64,000 nt of DNA from a virus. Positions 18,107 to 62,999 of the stretch are shown piece by piece (position 1 is the first letter of the stretch; every line of letters begins with the position of its first letter). The notes under the pieces are model-generated. The model searched no databases and was not told the origin of the DNA. It saw nothing but the letters and a program-made list of their open reading frames with translations. The stretch is taken from IMG/VR virus record IMGVR_UViG_3300031088_000759. One strand, given 5' to 3'. Made by a program: the position numbers and the translations under genes.

Positions 18107-19234
18107 TTAGTTATTATTGTCTTTATTCTTCGTAGGCATCTCAAATGTCCCTAACGATTGTATAGTCTGTTCAATAAAATTAACATCATCTTCATCTAAT
18201 CGGTATTTTTCAATTAATTGCTGATTTATTTCTTCTGTGCTTTTTGTGAAATCAATTTCAGAGTTATCGTTAGAGTACTTTTCCAAAAGAGGAACGTTAA
18301 CTCCAAAGTTCTTTATTCTTCGAGAGGATGACAGTATTAACGTTCTTATGATTGGTGTACTCATCCATTTCATAAAGTTTTTTGCTGTTGTTTCATCATT
18401 GAATTTTGCTACACCAAATCTACAATCACCGAATATTTCTCCTGGTTTAAAAATGTGCGCTTGTTGAGACCTTCCTCCGTATCCAGCAGCATTTCTAGGG
18501 CTAATAGCAATAACATAATCATTGATAGTTTCGGAATTCCTTTTTACATCTTTGGTGGGAATCCAGAACCAGTTCACTCTACCACCTTTTCCTGACGATG
18601 ATAAAGCTAACGTTCTTACGTAATAAGGTTCTTGGTCATAATCAGTATCTTCTATATGTGTAGTAGATTCTTGAATGTAACGACTATGTATTCCATAAAA
18701 AGAGCTACTTAAAAGTAAATCCGACAAAAATTGAGGTTGAGGTTCTTCAAATAGTTTTTCTTTTTTGCTAACGTGTTTATCTTTATTCCAATGAGTACAC
18801 ATGACTTTTTCTACGAGAGTGTTCATACGATTAGAAGTGGATACAGTTCTTGGGTAAAGATTATTAATAAAAATACTAGAATAGTATCCGTCCATCTCCC
18901 GCGAAGAAATATTGATAAGGTTATTATTGGTTATAGTATTATCTGTTTCAACAATGCTTATTCCACCGTGTAGAGCAATAGTTTCAAAAACATAATTAGC
19001 ATCTTCGTAAACAGTAATACTTTTGATGTTTTGAGATTTTAATTGATTATCAGAAAACTCATCAAAACCAGAGCCTTTACCAGATTTGTTCATCCATTTA
19101 TCAGCAGGATATATAAGAGAGGTTTTTTTGCCTACTAGATCACTGAATTTTTGGAAATGATGAAAAATAGCAGAGTTAGCTTTGTCTTGATAAGGTGGAT
19201 TACTGAAAACATAATCAAATTTTTTACTTTTCAT
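18107..19234 (-). CDS. Eco57I-like adenine methyltransferase C-terminal half (NPPY motif IV + TRD), lacking motif I
   Basis: Begins MKSKKFDYVFSNPPYQ; VFETIALHGGISIV; no FxGxG-like motif in the ORF. Confidence 0.72.
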   Translation of the reverse strand: MKSKKFDYVFSNPPYQDKANSAIFHHFQKFSDLVGKKTSLIYPADKWMNKSGKGSGFDEFSDNQLKSQNIKSITVYEDANYVFETIALHGGISIVETDNTITNNNLINISSREMDGYYSSIFINNLYPRTVSTSNRMNTLVEKVMCTHWNKDKHVSKKEKLFEEPQPQFLSDLLLSSSFYGIHSRYIQESTTHIEDTDYDQEPYYVRTLALSSSGKGGRVNWFWIPTKDVKRNSETINDYVIAISPRNAAGYGGRSQQAHIFKPGEIFGDCRFGVAKFNDETTAKNFMKWMSTPIIRTLILSSSRRIKNFGVNVPLLEKYSNDNSEIDFTKSTEEINQQLIEKYRLDEDDVNFIEQTIQSLGTFEMPTKNKDNNN

Positions 19235-19312
19235 CTTTTCCTCTTATACATATAATATAACTTATATAACTTTTTATATTGATTAAACATAATTAATATT
19301 GTTTTTAGCTTA

Positions 19313-20407
19313 TCATTTCTTAATTAAATGCTCTTTTTCAATGAGTTTTATTTCATCAATACTTAAATCAAATATATTATACAATTGATTGTCTAATTCT
19401 TTCGCTGTTAAATCATTCCACTGTATGAAACTATTGTTCAAATAATGTTCAAAGTCAGGAACAAAAACCCCAAAAGTTTTCAATCTTCCTGCTATTGACA
19501 AACGTAAGCAGAATTCAAAAAACTTAGTAGAAGCGTATTTATAAAAATTTTCTGATTCAATTTTAGTGTCAAAAAAGGCCAGTGAAATAGCAGCTCTACC
19601 ATATGTAGTGTTTTTGTCAAAATGAAATAATCTTATACTGCGATTTTCGTTTTCTATAATAGATTGACCCATACATATTTTGTATTTATCTTCTTGTATA
19701 AGATTTTTTCTATATTTATTATCATTTAAAACTTTTAAATCCCTAGAAATAACATAGTATGATGCTTTTCCTGTTCTTTCACCAGAAATGTTAGCATATA
19801 ATTTCAAAGATTCATCAAACTCTTTCTCTGACATAATCTTTTTAGCCTCTTCGAGAGAAATGGGGTTTAATTTTTTAACTTGTTGTGCTGAAAGACCGAT
19901 TTCGTTAACAAAAGCAGATTCATCACGATTATACAATGTTGAAATATTCATTTCTTTCATCTTATACAAAAGTTTTTTAGCAAGTGAAGCATAGGAAGCT
20001 TTTAAAGGCATAAGAGAATCATCATGTAATATTTTTGTGGAAAAATTTGTCAAATTCTCACTAAGAGTAAAACCTTCAGCATTCTCATTATTGCTCAGCT
20101 CAACGATTGTCAAACCTCCTGATATGAGTGTTCCAGGGAATATAGTTTTATTAGTTTCTCTTTCGTGGAAATAATGAACTCTTTTCAATCTTCTATTAGT
20201 GAGCAATTCTTTACGAAATTCAGGCAATCCGGTTGTTCCGTACCACCATCTACTAGCCATGTAAATCATGATAGAGCTTTTAGCAATATTTGTTCCCATC
20301 TTTTGAAAACAATGAAAAATAGGTCTATTCTGCGTGTTCTGATATGGCGGATTAGAGATTATGTAATCAAACTTTGGAACAGAATATGTTTTCTTCGAGA
20401 TTTTCAT
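19313..20407 (-). CDS. Eco57I-like adenine methyltransferase C-terminal half (NPPY + TRD), paralog 2
   Basis: KFDYIISNPPYQ at residues 11-22; IFPGTLISGGLTIV; C-term FVPDF...LDNQLYNIFDLSIDEIKLIE. Confidence 0.72.
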   Translation of the reverse strand: MKISKKTYSVPKFDYIISNPPYQNTQNRPIFHCFQKMGTNIAKSSIMIYMASRWWYGTTGLPEFRKELLTNRRLKRVHYFHERETNKTIFPGTLISGGLTIVELSNNENAEGFTLSENLTNFSTKILHDDSLMPLKASYASLAKKLLYKMKEMNISTLYNRDESAFVNEIGLSAQQVKKLNPISLEEAKKIMSEKEFDESLKLYANISGERTGKASYYVISRDLKVLNDNKYRKNLIQEDKYKICMGQSIIENENRSIRLFHFDKNTTYGRAAISLAFFDTKIESENFYKYASTKFFEFCLRLSIAGRLKTFGVFVPDFEHYLNNSFIQWNDLTAKELDNQLYNIFDLSIDEIKLIEKEHLIKK

Positions 20408-21144
20408 TTACAATCCCAATATAAAAAATGGTTCTTAAAAGATTTATCGTTGATGCTTGATTTTGACACCCAGAAGCTACCAACACCCATATTTCCCCAG
20501 ATGACAACATTGTCAAAAGTTCTCGACCCCAAAAAATGAACAAAATCGTCTATATTTCTTTTTTCTACTTTTTTACGGATATCATCTTGCTTAAAATGAG
20601 GATAACCACCTAACCATAAGGGATAGTGTTTTTCTGGCAATTTTTCATAATGATCCCAGTATTCAGAATCGCTAGGTGCCTCAATAGACTGAGGATGAGG
20701 CATCATTTCAAATGTTTCGCCAGATAAATAAACCCTACTGTCAGGATCTTCTAATGGCGATATAGCATCATCACTAGCACGCAATGTTTCAGCTTCAAAT
20801 TGTATAAAGCTTTCTTCATCATGTAATTCTTTAAGATAAAAGATTTTAGATATGCTTTTTGTTATATTGTCGAGATTTTTACCGTATGTTTGAGTGTCAC
20901 TGTGATAGAAATGCAGAAAACCATAATTTGGAATATTCAGAACTTTTATAATATGCTCAGGAATATTACTTAAATCAATTTGAGCAAAGAATACTAGTGG
21001 TGTTCCATCTTCTTCTACTGGATAGTCAAAATCGTCGCTTACATAAGGGTTGCCACCTAAAAACGAAGTTGTTGGAACATTGTCTTCAGATGGTGTGTAA
21101 CCAAAAGAAATTCTTTTCATAACATGAGAATAATCTTTTTCCAT
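20404..21144 (-). CDS. YwqG/DUF1963 family protein
   Basis: SFLGGNPY, PLVFFAQIDLS, GFLHFY, LGGYPHFKQDDIR, WGNMGVGSFWV, LYWDC; ATGA overlap with the MTase gene. Confidence 0.8.
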   Translation of the reverse strand: MEKDYSHVMKRISFGYTPSEDNVPTTSFLGGNPYVSDDFDYPVEEDGTPLVFFAQIDLSNIPEHIIKVLNIPNYGFLHFYHSDTQTYGKNLDNITKSISKIFYLKELHDEESFIQFEAETLRASDDAISPLEDPDSRVYLSGETFEMMPHPQSIEAPSDSEYWDHYEKLPEKHYPLWLGGYPHFKQDDIRKKVEKRNIDDFVHFLGSRTFDNVVIWGNMGVGSFWVSKSSINDKSFKNHFLYWDCK

Positions 21145-21269
21145 AATGAAACCTTTATTAGTGAGCTAATTTGTCAAATGTGATGTTTCCTACTTGTGTT
21201 TTTGTACTTATAATTATAACAACATGAATCTAATAGTTTTCTAATTATAATTACACTCTTTTCTATTCG

Positions 21270-21563
21270 TCACTCATAGTTGTAGGTTTCGGTTTCTGAA
21301 TCTTGGAGATAGGCTTCAATAATCCAACCTACGATTGTTTCTTCATCATCAAGGTCTACTTCTACGGGTTCAATCTCGAATTCATTTCCAATGATTTCTG
21401 TGTCTTGACCCGTAGCGATTTCTTCAATCATTTCAGTGCCAATGTCCCAGGCTTCGTTTTCATCCTGCGCTGAAACTTCTGATACTTTCAATTCTTCATT
21501 AACTTCTCTCTCGCACCAAAATTCATCACCTTCATGCGGAACAACAACTTGAATATTTTTCAT
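21270..21563 (-). CDS. Very acidic hypothetical protein, 97 aa
   Basis: AAGGAG SD and consensus promoter upstream. Confidence 0.75.
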   Translation of the reverse strand: MKNIQVVVPHEGDEFWCEREVNEELKVSEVSAQDENEAWDIGTEMIEEIATGQDTEIIGNEFEIEPVEVDLDDEETIVGWIIEAYLQDSETETYNYE

Positions 21564-21614
21564 GATTAACTCCTTCTATACAAAAGATCTTCTTATATTT
21601 TTCACAAGATTATA

Positions 21615-21643
21615 ATTATATCTATATTGGTGTTTCTTGTCAA
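21615..21643 (-). promoter_or_regulatory. Sigma70/SigA-type promoter
   Basis: TTGACA-N17-TATAAT on the minus strand. Confidence 0.75.
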
Positions 21644-21724
21644 GAATTATTATTAACAAAAACATACAGAAACGATTTTAAAAACCTTAGTTTCTGTGTT
21701 CAGTATCCCTTGTCTAAAATACGG

Positions 21725-21815
21725 TTTTCTTAAAAAGATGTAAAAATACAGAAAAACTCCCTCAAATAATTACGATAACAAGCGGTTTATTTGAGGGAGT
21801 TTTCTAAGCGATTCT
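21725..21815 (-). repeat. Conserved intergenic hairpin element, copy 2
   Basis: Perfect 17-bp stem 21753-21769/21787-21803, 17-nt loop, followed by ctaagcgattc. Confidence 0.6.
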
Positions 21816-21846
21816 AAAAGCTCTGTGTCGCTTCTATTAAACAATA

Positions 21847-23103
21847 TTATTTTCGTTTTTCTTCGTTTTCGTAGTAAGGTGAAAAATCCTCATTTGCTAT
21901 CTTTTCCAAATCGTCTTTATCAAACCATCCAAATATTTGATGTTTACCATTTTTTAAGTTAGCTTTCGGAGAGTAATTAATAAAAAACTTAGATTCCCTA
22001 ACGTCTTTTATGTCTGAATCTGCATTACTGCTCAAAGCATAAAGATTTCCATTAGTATTAAGTTTTGTTCGTGTTGGTTCAATGTACTCATCAGCTGCTT
22101 TTTTAGCTACATTACTACGGACTTCTTGTTCTTTAGATTTGCGACTTACATCTCGTTCATCATAGAACAAAGCCCCATTGCTGAAGGGATTGTTGCTACT
22201 TCCTAACCTCAAAGTACCATTGTCATTCGAGTCTTTGACTTTTTTCATCGTAGCAATCATTGCAGGGTTATCAGACACAATAGCTAAGAAGTCGCCACGC
22301 TGAAATTCTCCTTGCGGTGGTTTTATTGAATCTTTTTGTTCACCTTTTTCAAGTTTTACAGCAGCATTCACAAGATCGTCACGTTTAGTAGGAAGAGGCT
22401 TAACTTTACCTTTTAACATTTCACGAAGTTCAGATACTTTCATTCTATTGTACTTCCAGCTAGATTTCATGTCATCGTAGGATCTGTAATTCTTAAAGCG
22501 TTCTAATGCTGTTTCAATTCTTTCTTCTTTGCGCTCATCAGATCTGTATCCATGGCTCCTATCCTCACCAGCAATAACTAATACGCCTTTACCATCTTTC
22601 TCCAAATAAGTTATATCTTCTGGCTTAGATTCTCCATTGCTCAATCTTTTTGAAATTGCCGCTAAACCCCATTCTTCTTCAGCTTTAAAATCAGCTGAAT
22701 AAGTTAATCCAATGACTTTATCATCACTATCTTCTGAGCGAAGAAAACCTATGCCTGCTTCTCTGTTATTTACTTCTAATTCGGACATTTCTTTTAATTC
22801 TTCAGCACTTACTTCTTTAAGCAATTGTTGATAAGTAGTGTCTTTGAATTGTCTTTCATCCCTTGCTTTGAAATCATTCTCTAATTTTTTGATAAGTTTA
22901 TCAGCTTTTTGAACATGATTAGTATAAGGATTCGATTTTTTGAATAATCCAAACATACCTTTTTCTTTAACCATAGATTTTTCGTAAGCTTCTTGTGCTT
23001 CTTCTTTGTTGTTGAAGTGTGAGCCACCCACTGGACAATCTCTCACATCAGCACTACAAGGCTTAGGTCCATTCTCTGTATTGTGAAATTTCGTATTTGT
23101 CAT
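21847..23103 (-). CDS. HCCH-module protein, cargo unknown (about 418 aa)
   Basis: Start reassigned to MTNTKFHNTENGPKPCSADVRDCPVGGSHFNNKEEAQEAYE (AGGAG SD). Confidence 0.8.
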   Translation of the reverse strand: MTNTKFHNTENGPKPCSADVRDCPVGGSHFNNKEEAQEAYEKSMVKEKGMFGLFKKSNPYTNHVQKADKLIKKLENDFKARDERQFKDTTYQQLLKEVSAEELKEMSELEVNNREAGIGFLRSEDSDDKVIGLTYSADFKAEEEWGLAAISKRLSNGESKPEDITYLEKDGKGVLVIAGEDRSHGYRSDERKEERIETALERFKNYRSYDDMKSSWKYNRMKVSELREMLKGKVKPLPTKRDDLVNAAVKLEKGEQKDSIKPPQGEFQRGDFLAIVSDNPAMIATMKKVKDSNDNGTLRLGSSNNPFSNGALFYDERDVSRKSKEQEVRSNVAKKAADEYIEPTRTKLNTNGNLYALSSNADSDIKDVRESKFFINYSPKANLKNGKHQIFGWFDKDDLEKIANEDFSPYYENEEKRK

Positions 23104-23143
23104 ATTATCTCCTATGTTGATCATTGACAACTAGAATTTCTAA

Positions 23144-23848
23144 TCAAACCTTAGAAGAAGCAATGACAAGAGTAGTATCATCTTGTAGCTGTGATTCTTG
23201 ATCCATAAGATTCAAGAAGTTTTGAATGTCAAGGTTGCCTTCTAATGCTTGTTGTACAAGAGGTGCCCAAAAATCATGAGAGACTTGTTTTTCTGAAATA
23301 TTTAAAGATATTCCGGCTAATCCATCTGAGGAAACAGCAATTGCTTGAATATCCCCTTCACCGTACATGAATAAGGGTTCATAAGCTTCATCAGTTAAAA
23401 GTTTCGGATTGCCAGGATTGCTACTATCTTGATTTCGACAAATAAGTGTATGATCATCTTCTGCCTGTGATACTACTGCAAAAGCATCTCCTACTAAAGC
23501 TACACCCCAACTACTATGAGACTTCACTGCTAATGAAAGAGTGCAGCCCAAAGTGTCTCTATCATCACGAGACAACAATACTTCACGAGAAGCTTCAATA
23601 CCTCTATGTAAGGCTTCATCAATATCATTCCCAGCAATCAGAGAATCCAACGTTTCTTCAACACTTGTAGCAGCAGCTATTGAAGCACCAGTTACAGAGT
23701 TTTCGCCCAAAGAACTATCACCATCAGCAACAGCAATAACCGTATACCCATTTTCTTGTAAATACGCAAAAGAATCCTGATTTCCTTGATTATTTTCTCT
23801 ATGCGGGGCACTTTCAACGGTTCCAGCACTGATCCTCATATCACTCAT
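23144..23848 (-). CDS. PP2C-like (PPM family) protein phosphatase
   Basis: NQDSF, VIAVADG, GCTLSLAV, LVGDAFAV, AVSSDGL, DDTTLV; start set to MSDMRIS by GGAG spacing. Confidence 0.82.
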   Translation of the reverse strand: MSDMRISAGTVESAPHRENNQGNQDSFAYLQENGYTVIAVADGDSSLGENSVTGASIAAATSVEETLDSLIAGNDIDEALHRGIEASREVLLSRDDRDTLGCTLSLAVKSHSSWGVALVGDAFAVVSQAEDDHTLICRNQDSSNPGNPKLLTDEAYEPLFMYGEGDIQAIAVSSDGLAGISLNISEKQVSHDFWAPLVQQALEGNLDIQNFLNLMDQESQLQDDTTLVIASSKV

Positions 23849-23923
23849 TGTCATTCTCCAATCGTTGTTAAACTTCATTACAACTAATATCTGTCAAATC
23901 ACAAAAATACAAAGAAAAAGTGT

Positions 23924-24871
23924 TCAGAACAGCGTGTTCTCCTCTGTGTCTTCAAAAACTTTGTTACTATCATCCTCATTTAATATAGCTTTCCCATACA
24001 AACGCATATACTCTTCTACTACATCAGCTTTCCCAAAACCTCTTACAGAAGTATTCTTCTCACCCAGTTTATTGAAATCTATATTTTTCAAATTATCTAA
24101 TACTTTTTTATTAGCGCTTTTGAAAAACATCCATTGTTTTTTCCTGTCTAATTTCAAATCGGGAGAGTTAGTCAAAGGTGTAAACTCACCCCAACCTTGA
24201 CGGTACACAGCAAAATCCCAATCATGATCAAACATCCACAAAGCGGAGGGAACACAGTTGTATATAAACATTTCAAAATCTTCATGTTTAGTAGGTGGTG
24301 CTGTGTAGATTCTATAATCTACCAAATTCGTATCAGTGATAGGCAATTTAGTCCACACTTGAAAAACACAGCGTACAGAATACGCTTTCCCCTCAAAAGT
24401 AAATGAATCAGGATTGATAACCTCATTTACAACAAGCCTTGCGTATTTATCAATATTCTTCATAGTTAAATATTTCATAAACTGAATAGGCAATATGAAA
24501 GCCACCGTATCAGAATACTCAAATGCTTTCTCAATAAAGTCTAATGCTAATTGACTACGCTTACCAAAAGGTGGATTACCTATGACTACTAACTCTTCTT
24601 TGCCAGGAAAATTTTCAAATATTCTTTCTACATCATCATCAATAAAATCAGCATATTCTATTTCGTCTCTCTGAGGGTCAATGTCTGTGCCAAAAATTCT
24701 ATACCCTCTATCATGAGCAGCATCTATGAAGCTTCCCCCACCAGCTGAAGGTTCAAGAAAAGAAACCTTGTTATAGTTTAATGATTCTAAAACAGGCTTT
24801 AATACATCAATGCACTCACCCGCCATTTTTTCTGTGGTAAAAAACTGGTCCAACTCTTTTGCTTTACTCAT
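23924..24871 (-). CDS. N6-adenine DNA methyltransferase, complete (gamma-type motif order)
   Basis: LDQFFT, FLEPSAGGGSF (motif I), VIGNPPFG (motif IV), AFILP. Confidence 0.82.
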   Translation of the reverse strand: MSKAKELDQFFTTEKMAGECIDVLKPVLESLNYNKVSFLEPSAGGGSFIDAAHDRGYRIFGTDIDPQRDEIEYADFIDDDVERIFENFPGKEELVVIGNPPFGKRSQLALDFIEKAFEYSDTVAFILPIQFMKYLTMKNIDKYARLVVNEVINPDSFTFEGKAYSVRCVFQVWTKLPITDTNLVDYRIYTAPPTKHEDFEMFIYNCVPSALWMFDHDWDFAVYRQGWGEFTPLTNSPDLKLDRKKQWMFFKSANKKVLDNLKNIDFNKLGEKNTSVRGFGKADVVEEYMRLYGKAILNEDDSNKVFEDTEENTLF

Positions 24872-24926
24872 TCTTTCTCCAAAGATTTTTGTATGTACAA
24901 AGAAATCTTATCAAAATATTGCAGAA

Positions 24927-26072
24927 TCAGTCTTTTTCCAGACCTTCTTTATACCATACATTATAAGAGCCAGTTCCCATTTGTAATTTACTTGGGATAC
25001 GAATCAACTCATCAGTATTGTAGTTCTTCTTATTCACAATCTTTAAAGAACCATCTGGGTTTTTAATAGCATAAGTACTATTTTTATTATTGAAAAGAAC
25101 TTTTAAGTATTTTTGACCATCTGTTGTCGTAAATTCATAAGACAAACGCGCTGTATCTGTTCCAGAATTCACAACAGCAGTAACATTCCACTGCTCATCT
25201 TCACTGAGAGAAATTTCTGTTTCGCTAATGTATCCTTTGCCATCGTTCTGCCTGAAATTAACAATACTATAATCTTTTACTTGTTGGCTATTTCCTTTTT
25301 TCCCGCTGCTTTTTACGATATCATAAATTTCTTGAGAATTAACTGTATGATTCTTAGAATTAAAATCCTCAGCATAGGTTCTCATCTTCGCATCAAGTTT
25401 TTGAATTACGGCAGCTTCATCCTTGCCACCCTCTTTACTGTAAATATTCAACAATTCTAATTTTTCAGAGTTATCTAACGTGAAAGCGTCTGCGTTGATA
25501 AGAGATGACACTCTTTGAATCCCCGCTGCTGAATTAGTAGCAGCACCAAACTTAGTTTCCAAGTTCATTACATTTTCATCATTTGCAATAACTACAAGAT
25601 CACTATCAGCGCTATTTCCACCACTATTTCCTGATTGAATGGAAAAATTATCAGAACCTATCTTTTCAGCGGTTAATTTTCTTAAAGATTGTTTCCATTC
25701 ACTAAGGATTTTTTCTATTTCTTCTTCTTTCAGTCCACGTAGTGCTACAACTCTTTGAGAATCATTTATTTGACTAATATTTTTCGCAATAACTTTTATG
25801 TCTGATCCAGTGGCAACTGCTTCTTCGCATAAATTAGTCACTAACGATACATTAGAGCCAAAAACTTGAGTATTCTGCTTGACAATTTTTTTGACTAATT
25901 TAGGCGTTCCAACTTTTTGCTGCAAAAGGTTTTCTGCGGCTGAAATTGCTTCTTGTTTTGAAGAATAGTGTGTGCGTTCAGAATTATCTTCATCTCGAAA
26001 CAAGCAATTTCCTGGCTGAGCTCTACATATTCCAGCACGCATAGTATCTGGATTAATGTGATATCTTGACAT
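24927..26072 (-). CDS. HCCH-module protein with putative PD-(D/E)xK restriction-like nuclease cargo
   Basis: N-term RYHINPDTMRAGICRAQPGNCLF...HYSSKQEA; ADSDLVV...MNLETKFG resembles D-x(n)-ExK; directly upstream of a DNA MTase. Confidence 0.55.
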   Translation of the reverse strand: MSRYHINPDTMRAGICRAQPGNCLFRDEDNSERTHYSSKQEAISAAENLLQQKVGTPKLVKKIVKQNTQVFGSNVSLVTNLCEEAVATGSDIKVIAKNISQINDSQRVVALRGLKEEEIEKILSEWKQSLRKLTAEKIGSDNFSIQSGNSGGNSADSDLVVIANDENVMNLETKFGAATNSAAGIQRVSSLINADAFTLDNSEKLELLNIYSKEGGKDEAAVIQKLDAKMRTYAEDFNSKNHTVNSQEIYDIVKSSGKKGNSQQVKDYSIVNFRQNDGKGYISETEISLSEDEQWNVTAVVNSGTDTARLSYEFTTTDGQKYLKVLFNNKNSTYAIKNPDGSLKIVNKKNYNTDELIRIPSKLQMGTGSYNVWYKEGLEKD

Positions 26073-26073
26073 G

Positions 26074-26126
26074 AAAAAACTCCTTAGACAATAACTTTTA
26101 TCAGTTAATTATCTAACGAGTTTTTT
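26074..26126 (-). promoter_or_regulatory. Hairpin/terminator whose 3' arm contains the SD of the nuclease-cargo gene
   Basis: Minus-strand RNA AAAAAACUC G UUAGA U AAU U AACU-GAUAAA-AGUU AUU G UCUAA G GAGUUUUUU C AUG. Confidence 0.6.
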
Positions 26127-26141
26127 ATAGTTAATTAGACT

Positions 26142-26318
26142 TCAGAGAATCTGTTCAGCGTAGATTCGATCACCCATAATCACCTGAACAACAATGTCCT
26201 CACCAAAGACTTCATCCATAGCTTCACAAGCAGCATACTCATTTTCAAAAGAAATTTCGCTCACAAGCTCACCATCAACAGTAATAACTCGAAGGGTAAC
26301 ATCATCATTCTGAAACAT
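26142..26318 (-). CDS. Small acidic protein, 58 aa (not in ORF track)
   Basis: MFQNDDVTLRVITVDGELVSEISFENEYAACEAMDEVFGEDIVVQVIMGDRIYAEQIL; GAAAGG SD; TTGACA-N17-TATTAT at 26365-26393. Confidence 0.7.
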   Translation of the reverse strand: MFQNDDVTLRVITVDGELVSEISFENEYAACEAMDEVFGEDIVVQVIMGDRIYAEQIL

Positions 26319-26389
26319 TTGAACAACCTTTCACAGTGTCAATAAATATCTTGTTTTCATAAATATAATAACATAAACTTAGTATAGTG

Positions 26390-27052: not shown

Positions 27053-27090
27053 TACTCCTTTTTTTTATTCATCAATGCTTATCGAAAATT

Positions 27091-27480: not shown

Positions 27481-27518
27481 TTTTTGAACCTTTCACATTC
27501 AATATCTTCTATGTCCTT

Positions 27519-27547
27519 ATAATACTACAAAAAACTTATCTTGTCAA
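27519..27547 (-). promoter_or_regulatory. Sigma70/SigA-type promoter
   Basis: TTGACA-N17-TATTAT upstream of the deaminase. Confidence 0.7.
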
Positions 27548-27660
27548 ACTCTACAAAAAACGCAGAATTAAAAGAACAGACATGAACATGATAACACAAA
27601 GATTATATAACAGAAGCACAAATATCTTAGGCCATTTTGTTAAACCTGTATCTATTATCC

Positions 27661-41454: not shown

Positions 41455-43725
41455 TTAGATAATCTCTTTCACAAAGCGAGTCTTTCCGAAATCCCATAAA
41501 CGAGGCAAATCATTCAACTCAGCTAACTGCTTCTCAGTATAACCCTCCACATATTTAAGCTCCGGGTCATTCCTAAAACGCTTCAACCTGAAACCAAACT
41601 TATGCTTACGCAAGCCTTCATGAACATACCGATAATCAGGCATCAAGATCTTGTCCAAAGTAAAACCAAGGGAATGATACAAACCACCATTAGACACTTG
41701 ATGATCCGCAAAAGTAATAATCTGAGAACACCCCATAGACTTACCCCACTTCTCACCAGCTCTCAACAATTTGCCCATACCACCCACAACAGTCTGAGCT
41801 GTACAATAACGATCAAGATACAACTCATTAACATTCTTACGCCAAATACTTACAGCAAGAATATTCGTCAAATCATCATGATCCACCAAAGCAAAATACT
41901 TAGCACCACCAGTAAAACCCTGAATATGATGCTTATTACAAAAATCTTTCGCATCCTTAGAACTTACCTCTACAACCACAGTATTTCTAGCATAAACTTT
42001 TTTACCTTGAGAAACACCAAGCTTATAGGCTAACATAGATTTCACAATATCTTGCTTATCTCTCCACTCATCCTCCCAAACAGTGATAAGCTGAATGCCC
42101 GCATCATTACAAGCCTTCCACTTATCATAGTGGTAGTTTTTAGGATTACTTGAATTTTTACTCAATTGTTTTTCACTATGCCAATACAGACCATTGTACT
42201 CAATAGCTATCTTTTTCTCAGGAATATAAATGCCAAGCTCTTTAGGAGGAATGATTGATCTACTTCCTCTATGAATAGTTCCCTCATAGATACTACTTAC
42301 AAAATCATACACTTCTTTTTCTCCTTTTGATGAACCTTTACCAAAACCTAAACACTCATGACAGCCTTTATTCTCAATAACGCTTTTCACTGATCTTAAC
42401 CATTTTCCACCGCAAACTTTACAATGCCATAAAAACTTATCTATATTTGATTTTCTAAGTTGATCAAATTCTATATCATTCTCTTTCGAAAATAGTTCAG
42501 GTAAGAATGGATACAAAGTTGTTAAATCATTGTAGCCTTCAAGAATTTCTAAACCAGCCACAAACGGAGAACCACCCTTATTAATTACAACTCTTCCCAC
42601 AGGAGATATCCATTTGCCACCACTAACAGGGCAAATCCAAGAAAAATTCTTTTCTGACTTTCTTGAAACATCAGTTGGTCTTACGGGGAAATTATTTTCA
42701 TAATCCCACAATTTAGCAATTTCTGGTTCTGTAGTTGCTAAATCATTAATTCCTTCAAGAACAGAAGCAGATTTACAAATAGTACAACCTTCCTTATGCT
42801 GACCTTTTATTTGCGCATAGTACTCATGTCCATATTTACAAAAGAACAAAGCATATTTAGTAGTCTTTTCAGCTGAATTTAAAACTTCAAAAGAGTTTTT
42901 AGGAGATATCTTGTGTTTCAAAGCATCACTGTCTTTAACCAATACACCTGGTGGAATGCTATAATTTGCTCTTGCCAACCCTCTTTCGGGAAGAATTAAC
43001 TCATGATTGTATTCTCTTTTTAAACTTGTTGTTCTGACACAAAGTAAGCCTAAGCTTCTATAAATTCGCAAATCATTATTTAATAGATCATTGTGCTCAG
43101 TTCTTTTCAAACCAGCATTCCACGAAAGTATTTTTTGAATAGGAACAGGATTATCATCATGTAATTTAATTTTATATGAAGCTGAATCAACTCTATTGGC
43201 TAATTCATCAATCCAAAAAGCAGGATCAACATATGAAAGCCATTTATCAACAGTCATCATAGTTTTTTGAGCACTTATTTTAGCAGACCCTGCATAACTC
43301 TTACCATCATATATTTTTACTATTTCTCTGTTTTTATCAATTTTTAAAACAGGCTTTGAGTAATCTCTGGGGTTTATTTTATTAAAGATAGATTGAGCAA
43401 CTATTTTAGCATCTGCATCCATTAAATGTTGTTCTGTAATGACTATTAAATTCAGATCGTTTTTCCAAGCAGTTTCTTCAATAATTGACAATGAGTTAAG
43501 CACTCTTCCATTGCGGGACTTCCTTGCCCAGCTATTCGGAACATACCTCAGACAAAACAATTCATCTTTTTCAGAGCGAACAGCATAAGGAAACATTATC
43601 TGTTTATCCATAACAGTATATCTTTTATTGGTTTTTTCAAAAACAAGTCCAACCTTTTTCAGTTCTTTAATCAAGTCATCTGGAAGATCTACCCACCATT
43701 GTTCTTTTGATATGTTCAGTGTCAT
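41455..43725 (-). CDS. Zinc-ribbon endonuclease with N-terminal unknown domain and C-terminal homing-endonuclease-associated (Hef-like) domain
   Basis: About 3 Zn-ribbon units; ELGIYIPEKKIAIEYNGLYWHS; KVYARNTVVVEVSSKDAKDFCNKHHIQG...VVGGMGKLL...ITFADHQVSNGGLYHSLGF. Confidence 0.72.
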   Translation of the reverse strand: MTLNISKEQWWVDLPDDLIKELKKVGLVFEKTNKRYTVMDKQIMFPYAVRSEKDELFCLRYVPNSWARKSRNGRVLNSLSIIEETAWKNDLNLIVITEQHLMDADAKIVAQSIFNKINPRDYSKPVLKIDKNREIVKIYDGKSYAGSAKISAQKTMMTVDKWLSYVDPAFWIDELANRVDSASYKIKLHDDNPVPIQKILSWNAGLKRTEHNDLLNNDLRIYRSLGLLCVRTTSLKREYNHELILPERGLARANYSIPPGVLVKDSDALKHKISPKNSFEVLNSAEKTTKYALFFCKYGHEYYAQIKGQHKEGCTICKSASVLEGINDLATTEPEIAKLWDYENNFPVRPTDVSRKSEKNFSWICPVSGGKWISPVGRVVINKGGSPFVAGLEILEGYNDLTTLYPFLPELFSKENDIEFDQLRKSNIDKFLWHCKVCGGKWLRSVKSVIENKGCHECLGFGKGSSKGEKEVYDFVSSIYEGTIHRGSRSIIPPKELGIYIPEKKIAIEYNGLYWHSEKQLSKNSSNPKNYHYDKWKACNDAGIQLITVWEDEWRDKQDIVKSMLAYKLGVSQGKKVYARNTVVVEVSSKDAKDFCNKHHIQGFTGGAKYFALVDHDDLTNILAVSIWRKNVNELYLDRYCTAQTVVGGMGKLLRAGEKWGKSMGCSQIITFADHQVSNGGLYHSLGFTLDKILMPDYRYVHEGLRKHKFGFRLKRFRNDPELKYVEGYTEKQLAELNDLPRLWDFGKTRFVKEII

Positions 43726-53493: not shown

Positions 53494-53562
53494 AATTACC
53501 TTTATCCTATAATTGTTTTTAAATAGCTTAACAAAACTCATCTTTAAAAACACATAAACAAA

Positions 53563-53618
53563 ATAGAATATTCCAACCCAAACATGTAATCACAAAAGTT
53601 TGGGTTGGAATATTCTAT
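53563..53618 (-). terminator. Long-stem terminator
   Basis: Perfect 21-bp IR. Confidence 0.65.
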
Positions 53619-53629
53619 AAATTAAACAA

Positions 53630-57419: not shown

Positions 57420-57530
57420 AATTATATTCGCCTTCTGTTCTGCTATAAAATATATTACATAATCAAGCGATACTCTATCAAAAATTATAAACCCTGTCAA
57501 GTTAAACTTTTCGTCACTATAAACCTGTTA

Positions 57531-57869
57531 TTAGTGGTATTTTCTGATAGTTGTAGATATAGCATGCAAACCACCTTTATGTTTTGCCACTAGTGGAACT
57601 TCTACTACTCTCATTCGAGGATAAGGAGTGTCTAAAATAGCTTTGCATAATTCAAAGGTTATATAATCCTGATGAGGAAGTATTACCGCTGAAATGCTTC
57701 GGTTATTCTCGTATTCTTTTTTATCGGACACTATTGTACAATTGTCTTTGCTACTATCTACAACAATTAATACGGGAGTCCTTTCCATTTCCTCATCTTC
57801 CACTATTAATGCGTAATAAGCGCTGTGCGGGGAAACATCAAGTTTTGTAGAGTGTGAAAAATTATACAT
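57531..57869 (-). CDS. Hypothetical protein, 112 aa
   Basis: AAGGAGG SD. Confidence 0.72.
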   Translation of the reverse strand: MYNFSHSTKLDVSPHSAYYALIVEDEEMERTPVLIVVDSSKDNCTIVSDKKEYENNRSISAVILPHQDYITFELCKAILDTPYPRMRVVEVPLVAKHKGGLHAISTTIRKYH

Positions 57870-57959
57870 AACTAAACCTCCTTACAATTTTTCTTAAAAG
57901 TTTTGTATCTATATATTATCAAAAATTTTCTTAAAATCTTTCAACGCCCAAAAATAGAA

Positions 57960-58003
57960 GTAGGGCTAAGCAAAAATTTTTAAGACTTTTTGCTTAGCCC
58001 TAC
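57960..58003 (-). terminator. Terminator-like hairpin
   Basis: Perfect 17-bp IR. Confidence 0.65.
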
Positions 58004-58028
58004 ACAAAAAACAAGTTAATTACACTGG

Positions 58029-58610
58029 TCAGTCGTCAAATTGCCCCAATCTGTTTTCGCCATAAGTACCAATTCTTGGAATCCATACTAAGGAAGAAGC
58101 CAAAGTGCAAAACATCACAGCATTCGAGATAAAATTATCAGAATCAAAAAAGTTTTCTACATTTGTCATAGAAATCCAACTTACAACATGAGTTGTTATC
58201 CAAGCGTTCAGCATTAATAATACTATATTGACAACAACGGCTAAGATAATTGTCACTATATCCGATTGCGCTATTTTGAAAACAAATTTTACAATATTCG
58301 CAAGATAAGTAGTGGCTGAACGCATTAAACCTAATACAAGCACTACGACAAGAACAGTAACCACCCAAACGGGAACACTACTTGTATTGATAAAGTCAGG
58401 TGCCCCCAAAGCACTTGCCCAGTTAATCAAAAAACTTGAAAGATGGTAAACACCAAAAGCTGCTATGATAAGGATAATAGCAACAGCAACAATAAAGATT
58501 GGTCCAAATTTCTTGAACTGTTGAGTAATTGGTATACTCTGATCCTTGATGCGTTGTGGTTCACTGCTCATTGAACGCTCATCGTGACTGTAAAAATTAG
58601 GCTTCATCAA
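58029..58610 (-). CDS. Membrane protein, about 4 TM segments
   Basis: Hydrophobic helices; GAAAGG SD. Confidence 0.72.
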   Translation of the reverse strand: MMKPNFYSHDERSMSSEPQRIKDQSIPITQQFKKFGPIFIVAVAIILIIAAFGVYHLSSFLINWASALGAPDFINTSSVPVWVVTVLVVVLVLGLMRSATTYLANIVKFVFKIAQSDIVTIILAVVVNIVLLMLNAWITTHVVSWISMTNVENFFDSDNFISNAVMFCTLASSLVWIPRIGTYGENRLGQFDD

Positions 58611-58674
58611 ATTGTTTTACCTTTCAAAAGTTTCAATAAGCTGAATATCGTGGTTTGTTTGATTTTTAAATGTT

Positions 58675-58726
58675 TTAATAAAAAATGGATCAAACTTTTG
58701 TATTAGTTTGATCCATTTTTTATTAA
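58675..58726 (-). terminator. Long-stem terminator
   Basis: Perfect 22-bp IR. Confidence 0.65.
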
Positions 58727-58733
58727 AGATTAG

Positions 58734-58853
58734 TCATTTTTTGTCAGAGTTATTACGCCCTGTTACATGTCTCCAAATAGCAAACCCAAATATACCAGCG
58801 ATAACTAGACCAAAAGCAACGTATCCCAAAATGGGAATTTCAACACCTGTCAT
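58734..58853 (-). CDS. Single-TM microprotein, 39 aa (not in ORF track)
   Basis: MTGVEIPILGYVAFGLVIAGIFGFAIWRHVTGRNNSDKK; AGGAG SD. Confidence 0.65.
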   Translation of the reverse strand: MTGVEIPILGYVAFGLVIAGIFGFAIWRHVTGRNNSDKK

Positions 58854-58909
58854 ACTTGACTCCTAAGAACGGGATTTATTTTACAAAGCATTAACAATAT
58901 CAGAAAAAG

Positions 58910-58953
58910 CTAAACGCGCTAATTGGCACATGGTACTCAATTAGCGCGTTTAG
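58910..58953 (-). terminator. Terminator-like hairpin
   Basis: Perfect 16-bp IR. Confidence 0.65.
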
Positions 58954-58966
58954 AACGAAAGTTTTA

Positions 58967-59380
58967 TCAAATCACCTTAGTGTTAATAAGTCGATCAATA
59001 TGAGCACTAGCCTCAGGAGTCATAAGCGTGTTGACGTTAAGCTTACGGATAGTGTCAAAGTTGACATATGTCATGGTAGCCTTCCCCTTCTCGCTAACAG
59101 TGAGCTGCTTGACATACATGGAACCCGTCTTAGAGCGGTACACTCGATACACCTGATTGTTGAGCTTGTGATAACCCACAATCTGGTTCCTAGCCGTCAC
59201 AATAGCGTTATTCTGGGGGAACTGAAGCATACCCTGAATATATCCGTCAGCAGCCTCAGTAGTGAAAAGACCATTGTTCCACATAGTGCGCATAGTCTCA
59301 ATAAGAGCAAGAGGAACATAGCGCTCAGACTGAAGAATGTTAATAAAATCAATCTGCTGCTTAGTAACCGTGTTAACCAT
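58967..59380 (-). CDS. Hypothetical phage-type protein, 137 aa, GC-rich gene
   Basis: Start MVNTVTKQQ with GGAGAG SD; VYRVYRSKTGSMYVKQL segment. Confidence 0.75.
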   Translation of the reverse strand: MVNTVTKQQIDFINILQSERYVPLALIETMRTMWNNGLFTTEAADGYIQGMLQFPQNNAIVTARNQIVGYHKLNNQVYRVYRSKTGSMYVKQLTVSEKGKATMTYVNFDTIRKLNVNTLMTPEASAHIDRLINTKVI

Positions 59381-59419
59381 GATGCTCTCCTTCTCGACTG
59401 TGTTTCTCTGTATGGCTAA

Positions 59420-59448
59420 ACTATACCAACAATTTTTGTTCTTGTCAA
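59420..59448 (-). promoter_or_regulatory. Sigma70/SigA-type promoter (divergent pair, left)
   Basis: TTGACA-N17-TATAGT with TG extension. Confidence 0.72.
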
Positions 59449-59536
59449 ACAGCATGTTAAAAATGCTTAGCTTGACCTTTAAAACATTGTAGTTGCTTTT
59501 TGTTTCGAGTAGTAACAAAAAAAGATAATGGAAGAT

Positions 59537-59565
59537 TTGACATAGTTTTTTAAAAATGATATAGT
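59537..59565 (+). promoter_or_regulatory. Sigma70/SigA-type promoter (divergent pair, right)
   Basis: TTGACA-N17-TATAGT with TG extension. Confidence 0.72.
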
Positions 59566-59613
59566 TCAACATAGTTAAACAGTAAACATAGTTTTCGAAA
59601 GGAACTAACTATT

Positions 59614-59790
59614 ATGGCTCGCAATTTTAATCGTCGTCAGGATGGCCGTAAAGTCCAGCGTAATCTCCATTCACTTCAAGGTCGATATGTTCGTGATCTA
59701 GATCTTGAAGATTATGAAGATTATGAGGATTATGAACCCTTTGACAATAACACTCCCCGACGATTCCAGCATAATACAGATGATGACTGA
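59614..59790 (+). CDS. Small protein, 58 aa, basic N-half and acidic C-half (not in ORF track)
   Basis: MARNFNRRQDGRKVQRNLHSLQGRYVRDLDLEDYEDYEDYEPFDNNTPRRFQHNTDDD; GAAAGGA SD. Confidence 0.7.
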   Translation: MARNFNRRQDGRKVQRNLHSLQGRYVRDLDLEDYEDYEDYEPFDNNTPRRFQHNTDDD

Positions 59791-59805
59791 TTTTGAATTA
59801 TCTTA

Positions 59806-59854
59806 AATAATAAAAAGCACAACAGTTTAAGAAGCTGTTGTGCTTTTTATTATT
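59806..59854 (+). terminator. Long-stem terminator
   Basis: Perfect 20-bp IR. Confidence 0.68.
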
Positions 59855-59938
59855 TTGGTGTTTTGTTAATTCTTACTGTGGTTTTAGAAAAACAAATAAA
59901 TGATATAGTATATTACGCAACTTATAGATAGGAATAAC

Positions 59939-60946
59939 ATGGATAATTACAAACCATTAGCTCCCGCTGACGAAACTTTAATTCAATTCTTGAAAATGGG
60001 ATCAGACTTAGTAAACCGAAGAAAAAATGCTCAACTAGAAATGACTTCAAGCCCTGAAAACCAGAACCTTCTACTTGATGACACTTTCTCTATTGGATCC
60101 ATCACTCTCAGAGCAAAAAACTATGTTAACCTATCAGGCTTTTATCGCACAGTTCTAGGTCTTGAAGTTCTATCAAATGACCGCAGTTCAACCACTCTTG
60201 GACGCGGATCTACCCCTCTTCTTCACATTAAAGATGGTCAAGTTCTTACAGACAGGAACAAACAAGCCCCAGGGTTATTCAACTTTGCTCTTCTATACCA
60301 GAACAGTTCAACATTAGCATCCGTACTTACCAGAGTTAATTATTATCATCCAGAACTGTTTCGAGGTGCCACTTATAACGGGGTATCCACTAACTTCTAT
60401 TTAGAAGACCCTGAAGGAAATGGGATAAAACTTTATGTTGACAAAAAACCTAGCTCTTGGAAATGGTTAGGCAACACAATTCAAGTTAACCCTCAGCCAA
60501 TAGACCAAACAGAATTTTTGAAATATCATTTTAACGAAACCATTGATGAGACATGGGATAAACAACCAGTAAAAGTAGGCCATGTACACTTACAAGTACC
60601 CAGCATGGCAAAAGCAAAAGAATTTTACAATGATTTATTCGGATTAAATACCACACTTGATCTACCTTCCGTGAACTTCTATTCATCCAACAATTATCAC
60701 CAGCACATTACAGTCAACACATGGAACAGTCGTGGAGTATCACCTGTTGTATCAAAAGGAGTTGAAGAAATTCAGATTCTTGTTTCCGAAAGCACTTACC
60801 TCAGTGCTCTTAAAAGAAAATTAGAAAATTCACCATTGAAAAGCTGGAACGACAAATCAGGAAGATTGCTCATCGTAGATCCTTCAACCCTGATAAGATT
60901 TGAAGTGAAGCTCATCTCAGCACCAAAAATAATCGTTCAAGACTGA
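59939..60946 (+). CDS. VOC/glyoxalase family protein (CatE-like, two domains)
   Basis: FYRTVLGL, GLFNFALL, FYLEDPEGNGIKLYVD, VGHVHLQV...AKEFY, YHQHITVNTWNS. Confidence 0.82.
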   Translation: MDNYKPLAPADETLIQFLKMGSDLVNRRKNAQLEMTSSPENQNLLLDDTFSIGSITLRAKNYVNLSGFYRTVLGLEVLSNDRSSTTLGRGSTPLLHIKDGQVLTDRNKQAPGLFNFALLYQNSSTLASVLTRVNYYHPELFRGATYNGVSTNFYLEDPEGNGIKLYVDKKPSSWKWLGNTIQVNPQPIDQTEFLKYHFNETIDETWDKQPVKVGHVHLQVPSMAKAKEFYNDLFGLNTTLDLPSVNFYSSNNYHQHITVNTWNSRGVSPVVSKGVEEIQILVSESTYLSALKRKLENSPLKSWNDKSGRLLIVDPSTLIRFEVKLISAPKIIVQD

Positions 60947-60955
60947 AAAAAAAGT

Positions 60956-60998
60956 AAAAAACACCATCTGCGAAGCAAAAAGGCAGATGGTGTTTTTT
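60956..60998. terminator. Bidirectional terminator
   Basis: Perfect 16-bp IR between convergent genes. Confidence 0.7.
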
Positions 60999-61788
60999 AT
61001 TCTTCAGGTTCTTCAAAATAAACATTACTATAATCTTTTTTAGAAGAAGTCAAAAATTGAGTTGGCTCTACGTTAACCTCATTGACCATAACTTCCCAGT
61101 GAAGATGACATCCGGTACTTCTTCCCGTGTTTCCTACTTTCCCGATAAACTGACCTTGTTTTACAATTTCACCTTCATTGACATGAATATTTGACAAATG
61201 ATAGTAACTAGTAGATAAGCTGTCCTCACCTCTTATTTGCGTATTTGTTTTTTCAAATCCTAAGTGATCAACAACGATAGCATTACCTGCTGTATCATTT
61301 TTCCATTCAGCCATTGAGACTTTTCCATCAGAAGGAGCAAACACATTAGTTCCGCATGTTGCACCATAGTCAACACCCGCATGAAGTTTTGACTCACCAG
61401 TTACAGGATGAATTCTATAACCATAATCTGAAGTTTGAACAGGATTTTTCAACGGATTAATAAGTCCATCAATATTGTTTGCTATATTCTTGTCTGCTTT
61501 ACCATTGTTAGCCTTATCTACTGATAATTTTTCAATTGGCTCAGGTAATTTTACTTTGGGAACAACAATCAATTTACCTGTATCAAATGTATTGACTTTA
61601 TCTGCTTTTCCCGGCTCAACTGAGGGGATTTGAACAGGAGAAGTTGACCCTAAATCTATTGTTGTAGAACTTTTTCCATCTTCTGCATAAGCAATACTAA
61701 CATTTGTCATAGTTGTTAATGCTATTAAAACCACGCTTATTGGTACATACATTTTGGCACAAAACCGATTTTTTCTTCTAACTATCAT
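60997..61788 (-). CDS. Secreted M23 family metallopeptidase
   Basis: Signal peptide; HPVTGESKLHAGVDYG, YYHLS, IGKVGNTGRSTGCHLHWEV. Confidence 0.88.
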   Translation of the reverse strand: MIVRRKNRFCAKMYVPISVVLIALTTMTNVSIAYAEDGKSSTTIDLGSTSPVQIPSVEPGKADKVNTFDTGKLIVVPKVKLPEPIEKLSVDKANNGKADKNIANNIDGLINPLKNPVQTSDYGYRIHPVTGESKLHAGVDYGATCGTNVFAPSDGKVSMAEWKNDTAGNAIVVDHLGFEKTNTQIRGEDSLSTSYYHLSNIHVNEGEIVKQGQFIGKVGNTGRSTGCHLHWEVMVNEVNVEPTQFLTSSKKDYSNVYFEEPEE

Positions 61789-61886
61789 CTTCTTAACCTA
61801 TCAAAAATTTCACAATTATATTCATAGGTTAATATCCCATAAAAACAAGGCAAAAACAATAATAATCGCATTTTTTATGAAGAAAC

Positions 61887-62999
61887 TCACTTATTTTTAG
61901 ATGACATTTCAATAGGTAATAAATCTTCAAATGCTTTCAAAGCAAACCCCTCACTAGTCAAAAACCTTATTACTGAAATCTTGCCATTATGACCAATTCG
62001 TTTTTTGTTTTTACATGCCTTACAATTATCGTCACAAGACATAGGTTCTACCATTTTTAACCCATCCATCTGCCATAAGTTCCAAGAAGCGATTTCAGAA
62101 ACTTCTAATATTAACTCATTGTTAGGCATTTCATTAAAAACATCCTCATAATATTCAATGAATGTATTAAGCATATTTAAACGGGCAAGTAGTAAGTTAT
62201 CTCCCTGCCATTCATAACCAAAAGTATTAACTAATGACAACATGGCATAATTAACCCATTGTTCCTTAGTCTTTTCATCAATTTCTTCAACAACTCTACC
62301 TGTTCTATCCTTTTTGAAATCTTTGAACACATTTTCATACACTACTCGCAATTTTCGGTCTAGTAACCCGATTCGAGAAAACTTTCCCTCATCATCACGA
62401 ACAGGAATACCTTTACCAGTAGTTGTATCATAAGGAGACATTAGATAAGGACCTTCACCGCAGGCTAATTCCAATCTTCGTTCTACAATATAATCCAACC
62501 ATGTATAATCTTTAGTGAAAGGAACTTTTCTCTTCGTAGAAGTCCAGCTTTTCTTATCTTCTGAAACTTTATTGAAAACATTAGGTTTCAACAAGTGATC
62601 ATCTATTAGATTGTTTTGAACATTACATACCCAGCTAGGAGTGAACACTTCAGCTTTATCCTTGACTCGCCTTTTCTGCTCAGCTTTGCTTTTGTCCACA
62701 CGCGGAACGATAATTGAAAGATCTTGAATAGGCTGTTTAAATCCATATTCATCACCACGTTCAGAATAATTATCAGTAGCCCAAATGACAGTAGTCTCAT
62801 ATGTTTGAACAGGAGAAGTAGTAAAGCTTGGAGTTTCATCTAACATGTCCATCAAACTACCTGAGTTGATTTCTTTGTTGCTAAGAAATTTTTTATCCAA
62901 AATCTCTTTTCTGTGTTGTTCAACATTTTTCAAATGACGAGACTGGATCAAAACATTCTTTACATCATTCGGCAAATTCTTTAACTCATAAGTAGTCAT
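61887..62999 (-). CDS. N-terminal (SAM-binding) half of an Eco57I-like methyltransferase ('restriction endonuclease subunit M'-like), no NPPY motif
   Basis: IWATDNY, KDKAEVFTPSWVCNVQNNLID, RLELACGEGPYL, RIGLLDRKLR, GYEWQGDNLLLAR, SWNLWQMDGLK. Confidence 0.75.
   Translation of the reverse strand: MTTYELKNLPNDVKNVLIQSRHLKNVEQHRKEILDKKFLSNKEINSGSLMDMLDETPSFTTSPVQTYETTVIWATDNYSERGDEYGFKQPIQDLSIIVPRVDKSKAEQKRRVKDKAEVFTPSWVCNVQNNLIDDHLLKPNVFNKVSEDKKSWTSTKRKVPFTKDYTWLDYIVERRLELACGEGPYLMSPYDTTTGKGIPVRDDEGKFSRIGLLDRKLRVVYENVFKDFKKDRTGRVVEEIDEKTKEQWVNYAMLSLVNTFGYEWQGDNLLLARLNMLNTFIEYYEDVFNEMPNNELILEVSEIASWNLWQMDGLKMVEPMSCDDNCKACKNKKRIGHNGKISVIRFLTSEGFALKAFEDLLPIEMSSKNK

Follow-up and report, generated by a model that had tools for sequence, protein, structure and literature searches.

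One cofactor-binding half and two catalytic halves of a probable split gamma-class N6-adenine methyltransferase, encoded 41 kb apart

Gamma-class N6-adenine methyltransferases with a C-terminal recognition domain, such as CamA, M.TaqI and M.BseCI, are single-chain enzymes in which the motifs follow one another in the order X, I-III, IV-VIII and the recognition domain comes last. The published Type ISP and Type IIG/IIL enzymes, among them LlaGI, LlaBIII, MmeI and DrdV, are also single-chain and have no separate cofactor subunit. DNA methyltransferases that naturally consist of two polypeptides have been described for C5-cytosine, namely M.AquI and M.EcoHK31I (PMC3404938, PMC2836561). No published natural split of a gamma-class N6-adenine methylase was found in open-access texts, in which the only matches were C5 split enzymes, engineered splits, a Type III case in Mycoplasma with broken mod genes and a split PglX. 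The subject of this work is a 64,000-nucleotide stretch of the IMG/VR record IMGVR_UViG_3300031088_000759 (the window) and three of its genes, named H1, H2 and N (Table 1). It is very probable that these three genes are pieces of a naturally split gamma-class adenine methylase that is cut inside the Rossmann fold. A preliminary description of the window had proposed that one shared S-adenosylmethionine (SAM) subunit, N, pairs in trans with either of the other two to give two specificities, as a modular anti-restriction strategy.

The motif content of the three proteins is complementary. H1 begins with MKSKKFDYVFSNPPYQ, in which NPPY occupies residues 12-15, and residues 12-23 of H2 are KFDYIISNPPYQ, with NPPY at residues 19-22. 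In both proteins the string FDYxxSNPPYQ is reached within 5-12 residues of the start. Both match the Pfam domain Eco57I (PF07669, gathering cut-off 25.3 bits) over its second part only, H1 with 27.9 bits at model positions 71-171 of 171 and H2 with 36.4 bits at positions 73-167. An in-frame stop lies 0 codons upstream of the start of H2 and 3 codons upstream of the start of H1, which is preceded by a GAGGA ribosome-binding site. Because of these stops and the intact, full-length DUF1963 gene upstream of H2, there is no hidden or decayed N-terminal half beside the H genes. N has both motif X (AEVFTPSW) and motif I (LELACGEGPYL), no [NDS]PP[YFW] motif and no Pfam or NCBIfam match. The invariant columns of the N family alignment include EVFTP, E177, G181-E182, P184, D267 and R273, and D312 is conserved in at least 90% of the family. 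D267 follows the predicted strand beta-2 and D312 the predicted strand beta-3, and by their position they are putative motifs II and III. The longest frame of N extends over 61887-63038 and the gene on record begins at ATG 62999. This ATG, which has an AAGGA ribosome-binding site before it, is the likely start, and TTG 63038 is less likely. Motifs X and I are found in N only, and it takes the addition of N to H to restore the order X-I-IV. The whole window was scanned with regular expressions and tblastn, which gave no further N-type or H-type half; the sole other methylase is a complete, unrelated one. No other N-type half was found in the 10 kb beyond the window either.

Evidence that these are parts of one enzyme comes from homologues in which the parts are joined. 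An exhaustive search with N returned 1201 relatives. Among the best 150 of them, 119 are shorter than 480 amino acids (aa) and 114 of these 119 have no H region, and in 22 of the 31 longer proteins the H region comes directly after the N region. Homologues that unite both regions in a single chain have 630-770 aa, and their alignment, first to N and then to H1 or H2, runs almost from end to end. For example, the fused homologue P0057 (703 aa) is covered by N over residues 12-333, by H1 over 345-696 and by H2 over 345-658. The model of P0057 has a predicted local distance difference test (pLDDT) score of 82, and its best whole-length matches in the PDB are CamA (Foldseek E 3e-12), BrxX/PglX, M.TaqI and M.BseCI. 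In this model the N part gives beta-1, which stands just before the CGEAP loop, beta-2, beta-3 and a small hairpin subdomain, and the H part opens exactly at beta-4, the FDxVIGNPPY strand. The P0057 model has a class I Rossmann-like fold with a recognition domain; the proteins of the window have it only in the form of the modelled heterodimer of N and H2 that is discussed below. Together the chains have the full conserved set, with motifs X and I and the putative motifs II and III in N and motifs IV-VIII and the recognition domain in H. These comparisons support the assignment of H1, H2 and N as complementary halves of an Eco57I/CamA-like gamma-class N6-adenine methyltransferase. The preliminary description had already recognised that the two H frames begin at motif IV and have no motif I, that N has motifs X and I and no NPPY, and that a split DNA methyltransferase might be involved; the partial domain matches, the motif search and the fused homologues agree with it on each of these points.

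N modelled alone reaches a pLDDT of 92.5, and a Foldseek search with this model gave no match at E <=0.001. When the model was compared with methylases by VIA-align, only the N-terminal parts of methylase domains were matched; these included MmeI (Z 10.3, root-mean-square deviation 3.5, 161 residues aligned), residues 26-153 of CamA (Z 7.1) and LlaBIII (Z 6.9). Sequence searches of the PDB gave only a spurious M32 carboxypeptidase match for N and none for H2. Two separate PADLOC models that are both named MTase_II match the halves over their full lengths, PDLC03375 (348 positions) matching H1 and PDLC03390 (327 positions) matching N with an E value of 3e-73, and the ESM Atlas clusters of N carry the name 'restriction endonuclease subunit M'. 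Each half has therefore been catalogued, but under the name of a whole enzyme. The closest representative homologue of N is P0007 (664 aa, from an ENA contig of 14.7 kb), which is 61% identical and is broken by about 300 residues with a LAGLIDADG_3 domain. From its sequence this looks like an intein or a homing-endonuclease insertion in a cofactor half.

The split recurs in nature. Layouts were counted in 79 metagenome loci that hold relatives of H. N and H are fused in one frame in 21 of them, and an N-type open reading frame (ORF) is located just upstream of an H-only ORF in 19. In a further 7 loci N is upstream of an H ORF with an extension of 100-260 aa, and in 2 it is upstream of an ORF of more than 1000 aa that ends in H. 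The other loci have no N beside H, which is then an H-only ORF (13), an H ORF with an N-terminal extension (14) or the end of an ORF of more than 1000 aa (3). The presence of both the fused layout and the layouts with N upstream of H establishes a recurrent natural split between motifs III and IV. Ten of the adjacent N/H junctions were inspected, and all of them show a Shine-Dalgarno sequence; the two genes overlap as ATGA or are separated by 2-4 nucleotides (nt), in various frames, and H begins MKFDY.IGNPPYQ. The truncated form is conserved as well. Close homologues form five clusters for H2 and eleven for H1, with lengths of 337-392 aa except for one of 439 aa; the range for the H1 clusters is 340-392 aa. 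The aligned H2 homologues all begin at the same strand, beta-4. NPPY and the neighbouring catalytic residues are invariant in the alignment of H-only proteins.

Unlinked and reordered forms are also found. Five draft genomes with N alone were searched and all five have an H elsewhere, the assemblies being too fragmented to judge linkage. In the cultured jumbo phage Tenacibaculum phage PTm1 (NC_049340.1, 193941-196373) the H-only gene gp277 encodes 344 aa, begins MKFDIIVGNPPYQ and matches the H profile with an E value of 1e-102; the N gene gp279 encodes 335 aa and matches the N profile with an E value of 4e-130; and gp278, a helix-turn-helix (HTH) gene, completes the set. A 56-kb metagenome contig (OJLL01000020.1; L029/L030) has an H-bearing ORF of 855 aa (L030:985-3549) and, not linked to each other, two H-only genes that share 33% and 30% identity with H2; no N gene or gene for the second type of cofactor half described below (N2) occurs within the 40 kb that were read. 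A megablast search with the H region against plasmids and phages gave no match, and no relatives of H2 were found in IMG/VR.

H1 and H2 are 25% identical overall, and the identity is not evenly spread. It is 51% in the first 60 residues and 41% in the last 60, and it falls to 13-22% in the middle. Such a pattern would be expected if H1 and H2 shared their docking and catalytic part and differed in recognition, and it fits two specificities. In the arrangement that is proposed here, H1 and H2 would be catalytic and DNA-recognition subunits, with motifs IV-VIII and a target-recognition domain, of a split gamma-class N6-adenine methyltransferase. N, from the same family, would bind the cofactor and contribute motifs X and I and the putative motifs II and III. 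Neither an N-type nor an H-type chain would hold a complete Rossmann fold, and the active enzyme would form by strand pairing between beta-1 from an N-type chain and beta-4 (FDYxxSNPPY) from an H-type chain, which would set SAM next to NPPY. N would then serve H1 and H2 in turn, and two sequence specificities would be obtained from one cofactor module. The 74 kb that were read encode no N-type chain other than N, which is therefore the best candidate partner for both H1 and H2. That N pairs with H1 and H2 in this genome is the best available reading, and the chances for it and against it appear about equal.

A model of N with H2 and SAM, for which custom alignments were used, supports the binding of N to H2. 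The interaction prediction scores from aligned errors (ipSAE) were 0.93, 0.92 and 0.93 and the best control reached 0.02. The mark used for complex scores is passed by 58 of 80 solved complexes and by 2 of 110 mismatched pairs. The partner pLDDT does not fall below 79, and the runs share at least 81% of their contacts. Contact is predicted to be tightest between residues 173-180 of N (RRLELACG, beta-1) and residues 13-20 of H2 (FDYIISNP, beta-4), and this pairing completes the class I methylase sheet in the model.

Several observations weigh against the pairing of N with H1 and H2. The pass of the N-H2 model may reflect likeness to solved single-chain enzymes, and proteins closely related to a true partner tend to reach the mark as well. 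The higher identity of H1 and H2 at the interface (45%, against 23% elsewhere) was considered as evidence for a shared partner and was rejected, as it is dominated by the catalytic motif IV. N and the H genes are separated by 41 kb and are not co-transcribed. A different cofactor-binding half is found beside the H genes of relatives. The H2-H1 tandem is orthologous to one in the 681-kb relative L028, where Ha and Hb share 48% and 51% identity with H2 and H1, respectively, and in L028, L001 and L201/L202 the orthologous tandem is located 2-4 kb from N2. The preliminary description had counted other partner halves next to the H genes as evidence against its reading, and such a half is seen in the relatives. 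N2 (P0185) has GEVFTPRWV, a canonical motif I (VEPAVGTGNY) and YAFDID, no NPPY and no Pfam match, and it has a long helical C-terminus. It is 53-57% identical among L028, L001 and L201/L202, it is convergent to an H gene in these relatives, and in L001 and L201 a third H gene adjoins it. Compared with L028, the window is without the DUF7226, pilin-like and N2 genes and the N-terminal part of a kinase next to H1. This comparison suggests that a deletion or rearrangement of about 4-5 kb took out the DUF7226, pilin-like and N2 genes. N2 may be the ancestral partner of the H tandem and is perhaps encoded elsewhere in the remaining ~650 kb of the contig.

The company that N keeps in bacterial genomes points in the same direction. 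In about 60 of the best 80 bacterial genome loci (L109-L188; for example L147:9923-14840 of Prevotella corporis DSM 18810) N is directly upstream (-84 to +23 nt) of an ORF of 1300-1380 aa. This ORF combines a ResIII helicase with an Eco57I domain and a C-terminus that resembles H, in some cases also with a weak match to T5orf172, and its PADLOC match is REase_MTase_IIG PDLC03626. In the giant-contig relatives L002 and L108 a helicase-methylase ORF is present 2.4 and 4.8 kb from N. No such ORF occurs within 10 kb of N in L107 and L003/L004. In the window, too, N has no ResIII ORF as a neighbour, even when the following 10 kb are included. The large helicase-methylase ORFs are themselves equipped with a motif X (ETVLTPWRVVN) and with a strand that resembles motif I (ILEINSKSGLYPLY), and it is therefore puzzling why a separate cofactor half accompanies them. 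In a profile-profile comparison of N with their region before NPPY, only motif X aligns, with 62% probability. A search of the PDB with the sequence of the large ORF of L013 gave nothing useful. P0138 (1125 aa) is an in-frame fusion of N to a ResIII helicase, and at L171:9902-15179 an N-ResIII fusion is followed by a 1117-aa Eco57I ORF that overlaps it by 151 nt. From such sequences, the N module can sit at the N-terminus of a helicase-methylase chain.

It is possible, if less than even in likelihood, that the split is real and the partners are different. H1 and H2 would then use an N2-type subunit encoded outside the window, and N would serve another H-bearing protein, such as a Type ISP-like helicase-methylase. 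Both the N2 clusters of the relatives and the ResIII-Eco57I ORFs, which in L002, L108 and about 60 of the 80 top genome loci adjoin N or lie within 5 kb of it, are what would be expected in that case. However, no N2 homologue and no ResIII ORF are present in the window or in the 10 kb beyond N, and the N-H2 model is confident. No N homologue from the 681-kb relative is among the 120 homologues of N that were listed, which is weak evidence that N and N2 replace one another. Since N2 stands beside the orthologous tandem in the relatives and is absent from the window and its 10-kb extension, N at 61887 stays a candidate for the partner of H1 and H2. The sharing of one cofactor subunit by several catalytic and recognition subunits is supported by the conserved clusters of the relatives, but there the cofactor subunit is N2, and elsewhere N mostly heads a helicase-methylase operon. 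The proposal of two specificities agrees with the divergence of H1 and H2 in the middle, DNA-reading part, and N is a candidate for the shared partner that it requires. A wider proposal can be put forward tentatively, namely that N- and H-halves are free-standing, interchangeable modules. One N, wherever in the genome its gene lies, would serve several H proteins (H1, H2 and perhaps the H domains at the end of helicase-nucleases), N and N2 would be mutually replaceable, and combinatorial specificity would arise with an active site that lies across the subunit interface.

The missing genes next to H1 raise another explanation, in which H1 and H2 were orphaned by the loss of the N2 block and are inactive leftovers that have not decayed, N being functionally unrelated. 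The absence of DUF7226, the pilin-like gene, N2 and the N-terminal part of the kinase between H1 and the ORF at 16834-17805, relative to L028, is what such a loss would leave. But H1 and H2 are intact, with all family-invariant residues and good translation signals, and both paralogues have been kept at about 50% identity to their orthologues, so this explanation is improbable. Still less probable is that the halves act alone in roles other than methylation, for example with N sensing SAM and H binding specific DNA sequences or acting as a regulator. The very confident predicted fold of N alone would suit such a role, as would the association of N with helicase-methylase ORFs that have their own motif X and motif-I-like strand. 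Against it, NPPY and the catalytic residues around it are invariant in H-only proteins, and fused and translationally coupled forms are common. An assembly error or a frameshift that broke a single gene can be dismissed as extremely unlikely, as nothing was found in its favour, the halves are separated by dozens of genes, N recurs without change, and with unchanged neighbours, on contigs of two other samples, and the H-only form is conserved across many contigs.

The nature of the replicon bears on the function that may be assigned to the pairing of N with H1 and H2. The window belongs to a contig of 727,572 bp (ENA ERZ27247443, k141_1824502) with about 34% GC. Homologues of N are located on other contigs of 407-670 kb, and related contigs of 400-730 kb carry cell-type genes. 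Genes for isoleucyl-tRNA synthetase, topoisomerase I, LytR-CpsA-Psr, YkuD, IMPDH and ClpB are present in the flanking sequence that was read. Ten large ORFs of the window have no PHROG match, and there is no tRNA in the window. The replicon is more likely a small-genome bacterium than a phage, and for this reason the modular anti-restriction strategy that had been suggested is without support.

Table 1. Positions of the genes and sites discussed. Coordinates are those of the window unless a contig is named.
Feature	Position	Strand	Size	Description
ORF after H1	16834-17805	minus	323 aa	membrane-type; its match to a 655-aa Ser/Thr kinase of L028 (L028:15518-17485) is confined to the last 190 residues of the kinase
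H1	18107-19234	minus	375 aa	probable catalytic (motif IV onward) and DNA-recognition half of a split N6-adenine methyltransferase
H2	19313-20407	minus	364 aa	probable second, divergent catalytic and DNA-recognition half
DUF1963 gene	20404-21144	minus		Pfam PF09234, E 1.4e-33, full model coverage
Acidic ORF	21270-21563		97 aa	downstream of the consensus promoter; followed by DUF1963, H2 and H1
Sigma-70-like consensus	21615-21643	minus		TTGACA, 17 nt, TATAAT; 12/12 hexamer matches
Other methylase	23927-24907			complete
DUF4379 genes	4533-6362, 7731-9983, 41455-43725	minus		treble-clef zinc-finger domain, two to seven copies each, E to 1e-96
N	61887-62999	minus	370 aa	probable stand-alone SAM-binding half; motifs X, I, putative II/III and a Cys/His-rich C-terminal hairpin subdomain
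N2 (relatives)	L001:14943-16025, L028:14238-15383, L201:14065-15219	minus	360-384 aa	different cofactor-binding half

Among the neighbours of the H genes, the stop of the DUF1963 gene overlaps the start of H2 as ATGA, and this gene is translationally coupled to H2 and probably belongs to the same operon. DUF1963 was considered as a conserved partner of the H tandem and rejected, since an unrelated ORF is found upstream of the tandem in L001. The sigma-70-like sequence, which is no more than a consensus match, is a possible promoter of a unit that would consist of the 97-aa ORF, DUF1963, H2 and H1, and no terminator-like site was found between it and H1. The DUF4379 domain, which recurs in the window, also recurs in the related contig L001.

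If N and H assemble in trans, the result would be a natural case of fragment complementation within the Rossmann fold, with the cut between beta-3 and beta-4. The fused, adjacent, reordered and unlinked forms offer a ready series for studying how enzymes are split and recombined. Several catalytic and recognition subunits for each cofactor subunit would diversify methylation specificity in a manner analogous to the exchange of HsdS, by a different mechanism. There are also consequences for annotation. Methylase counts and genome-based predictions of methylation motifs are biased because databases label each half as complete; PADLOC uses 'Type II methyltransferase', and the name 'restriction endonuclease subunit M' appears in NCBI and the ESM Atlas. 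Unlinked halves such as N and H1/H2 would never be paired by annotation that draws on gene neighbourhood.

How does this arrangement compare with known systems? Relative to CamA, M.TaqI and M.BseCI, the motif order is the same, but here the cut falls within the Rossmann sheet, after motif III and before motif IV. Motif I is CGE(G/A)P and not GxG and is about 200 residues away from motif IV, and N has the extra Cys/His hairpin subdomain. N resembles the N-terminal part of the methylase domains of the Type ISP and Type IIG/IIL enzymes; in contrast to these, no restriction endonuclease, helicase or nuclease gene was identified beside N, H1 or H2 in the window. Type I restriction-modification systems, with HsdM and an exchangeable HsdS, and BcgI-like Type IIB systems follow the same logic of a constant subunit with alternative ones. 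However, HsdS and BcgI-B have no catalytic motif, whereas the exchangeable subunit here carries NPPY and half of the catalytic fold. Membership of Type I does not agree with the domain matches either, as H1 and H2 match Eco57I and not Methylase_S, and N has no HsdM Pfam match. PTm1 shares with the window the encoding of H-only and N as separate genes, but its genes are arranged in the order H, HTH, N within 2.5 kb, and there is a single H. The two halves of the phage are annotated as 'DNA methyltransferase' and 'restriction endonuclease subunit M', and the split is not mentioned. With M.AquI and M.EcoHK31I the likeness would be that one methyltransferase is built from two separately translated chains. 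In those enzymes the cut falls in the variable region between motifs VIII and IX, outside the cofactor-binding fold, and the genes are adjacent or overlapping. The proteins of the window differ in having N6-adenine motifs (NPPY) instead of those of C5-cytosine enzymes, in the 41 kb that separate their genes, and in the presence of two alternative catalytic chains.

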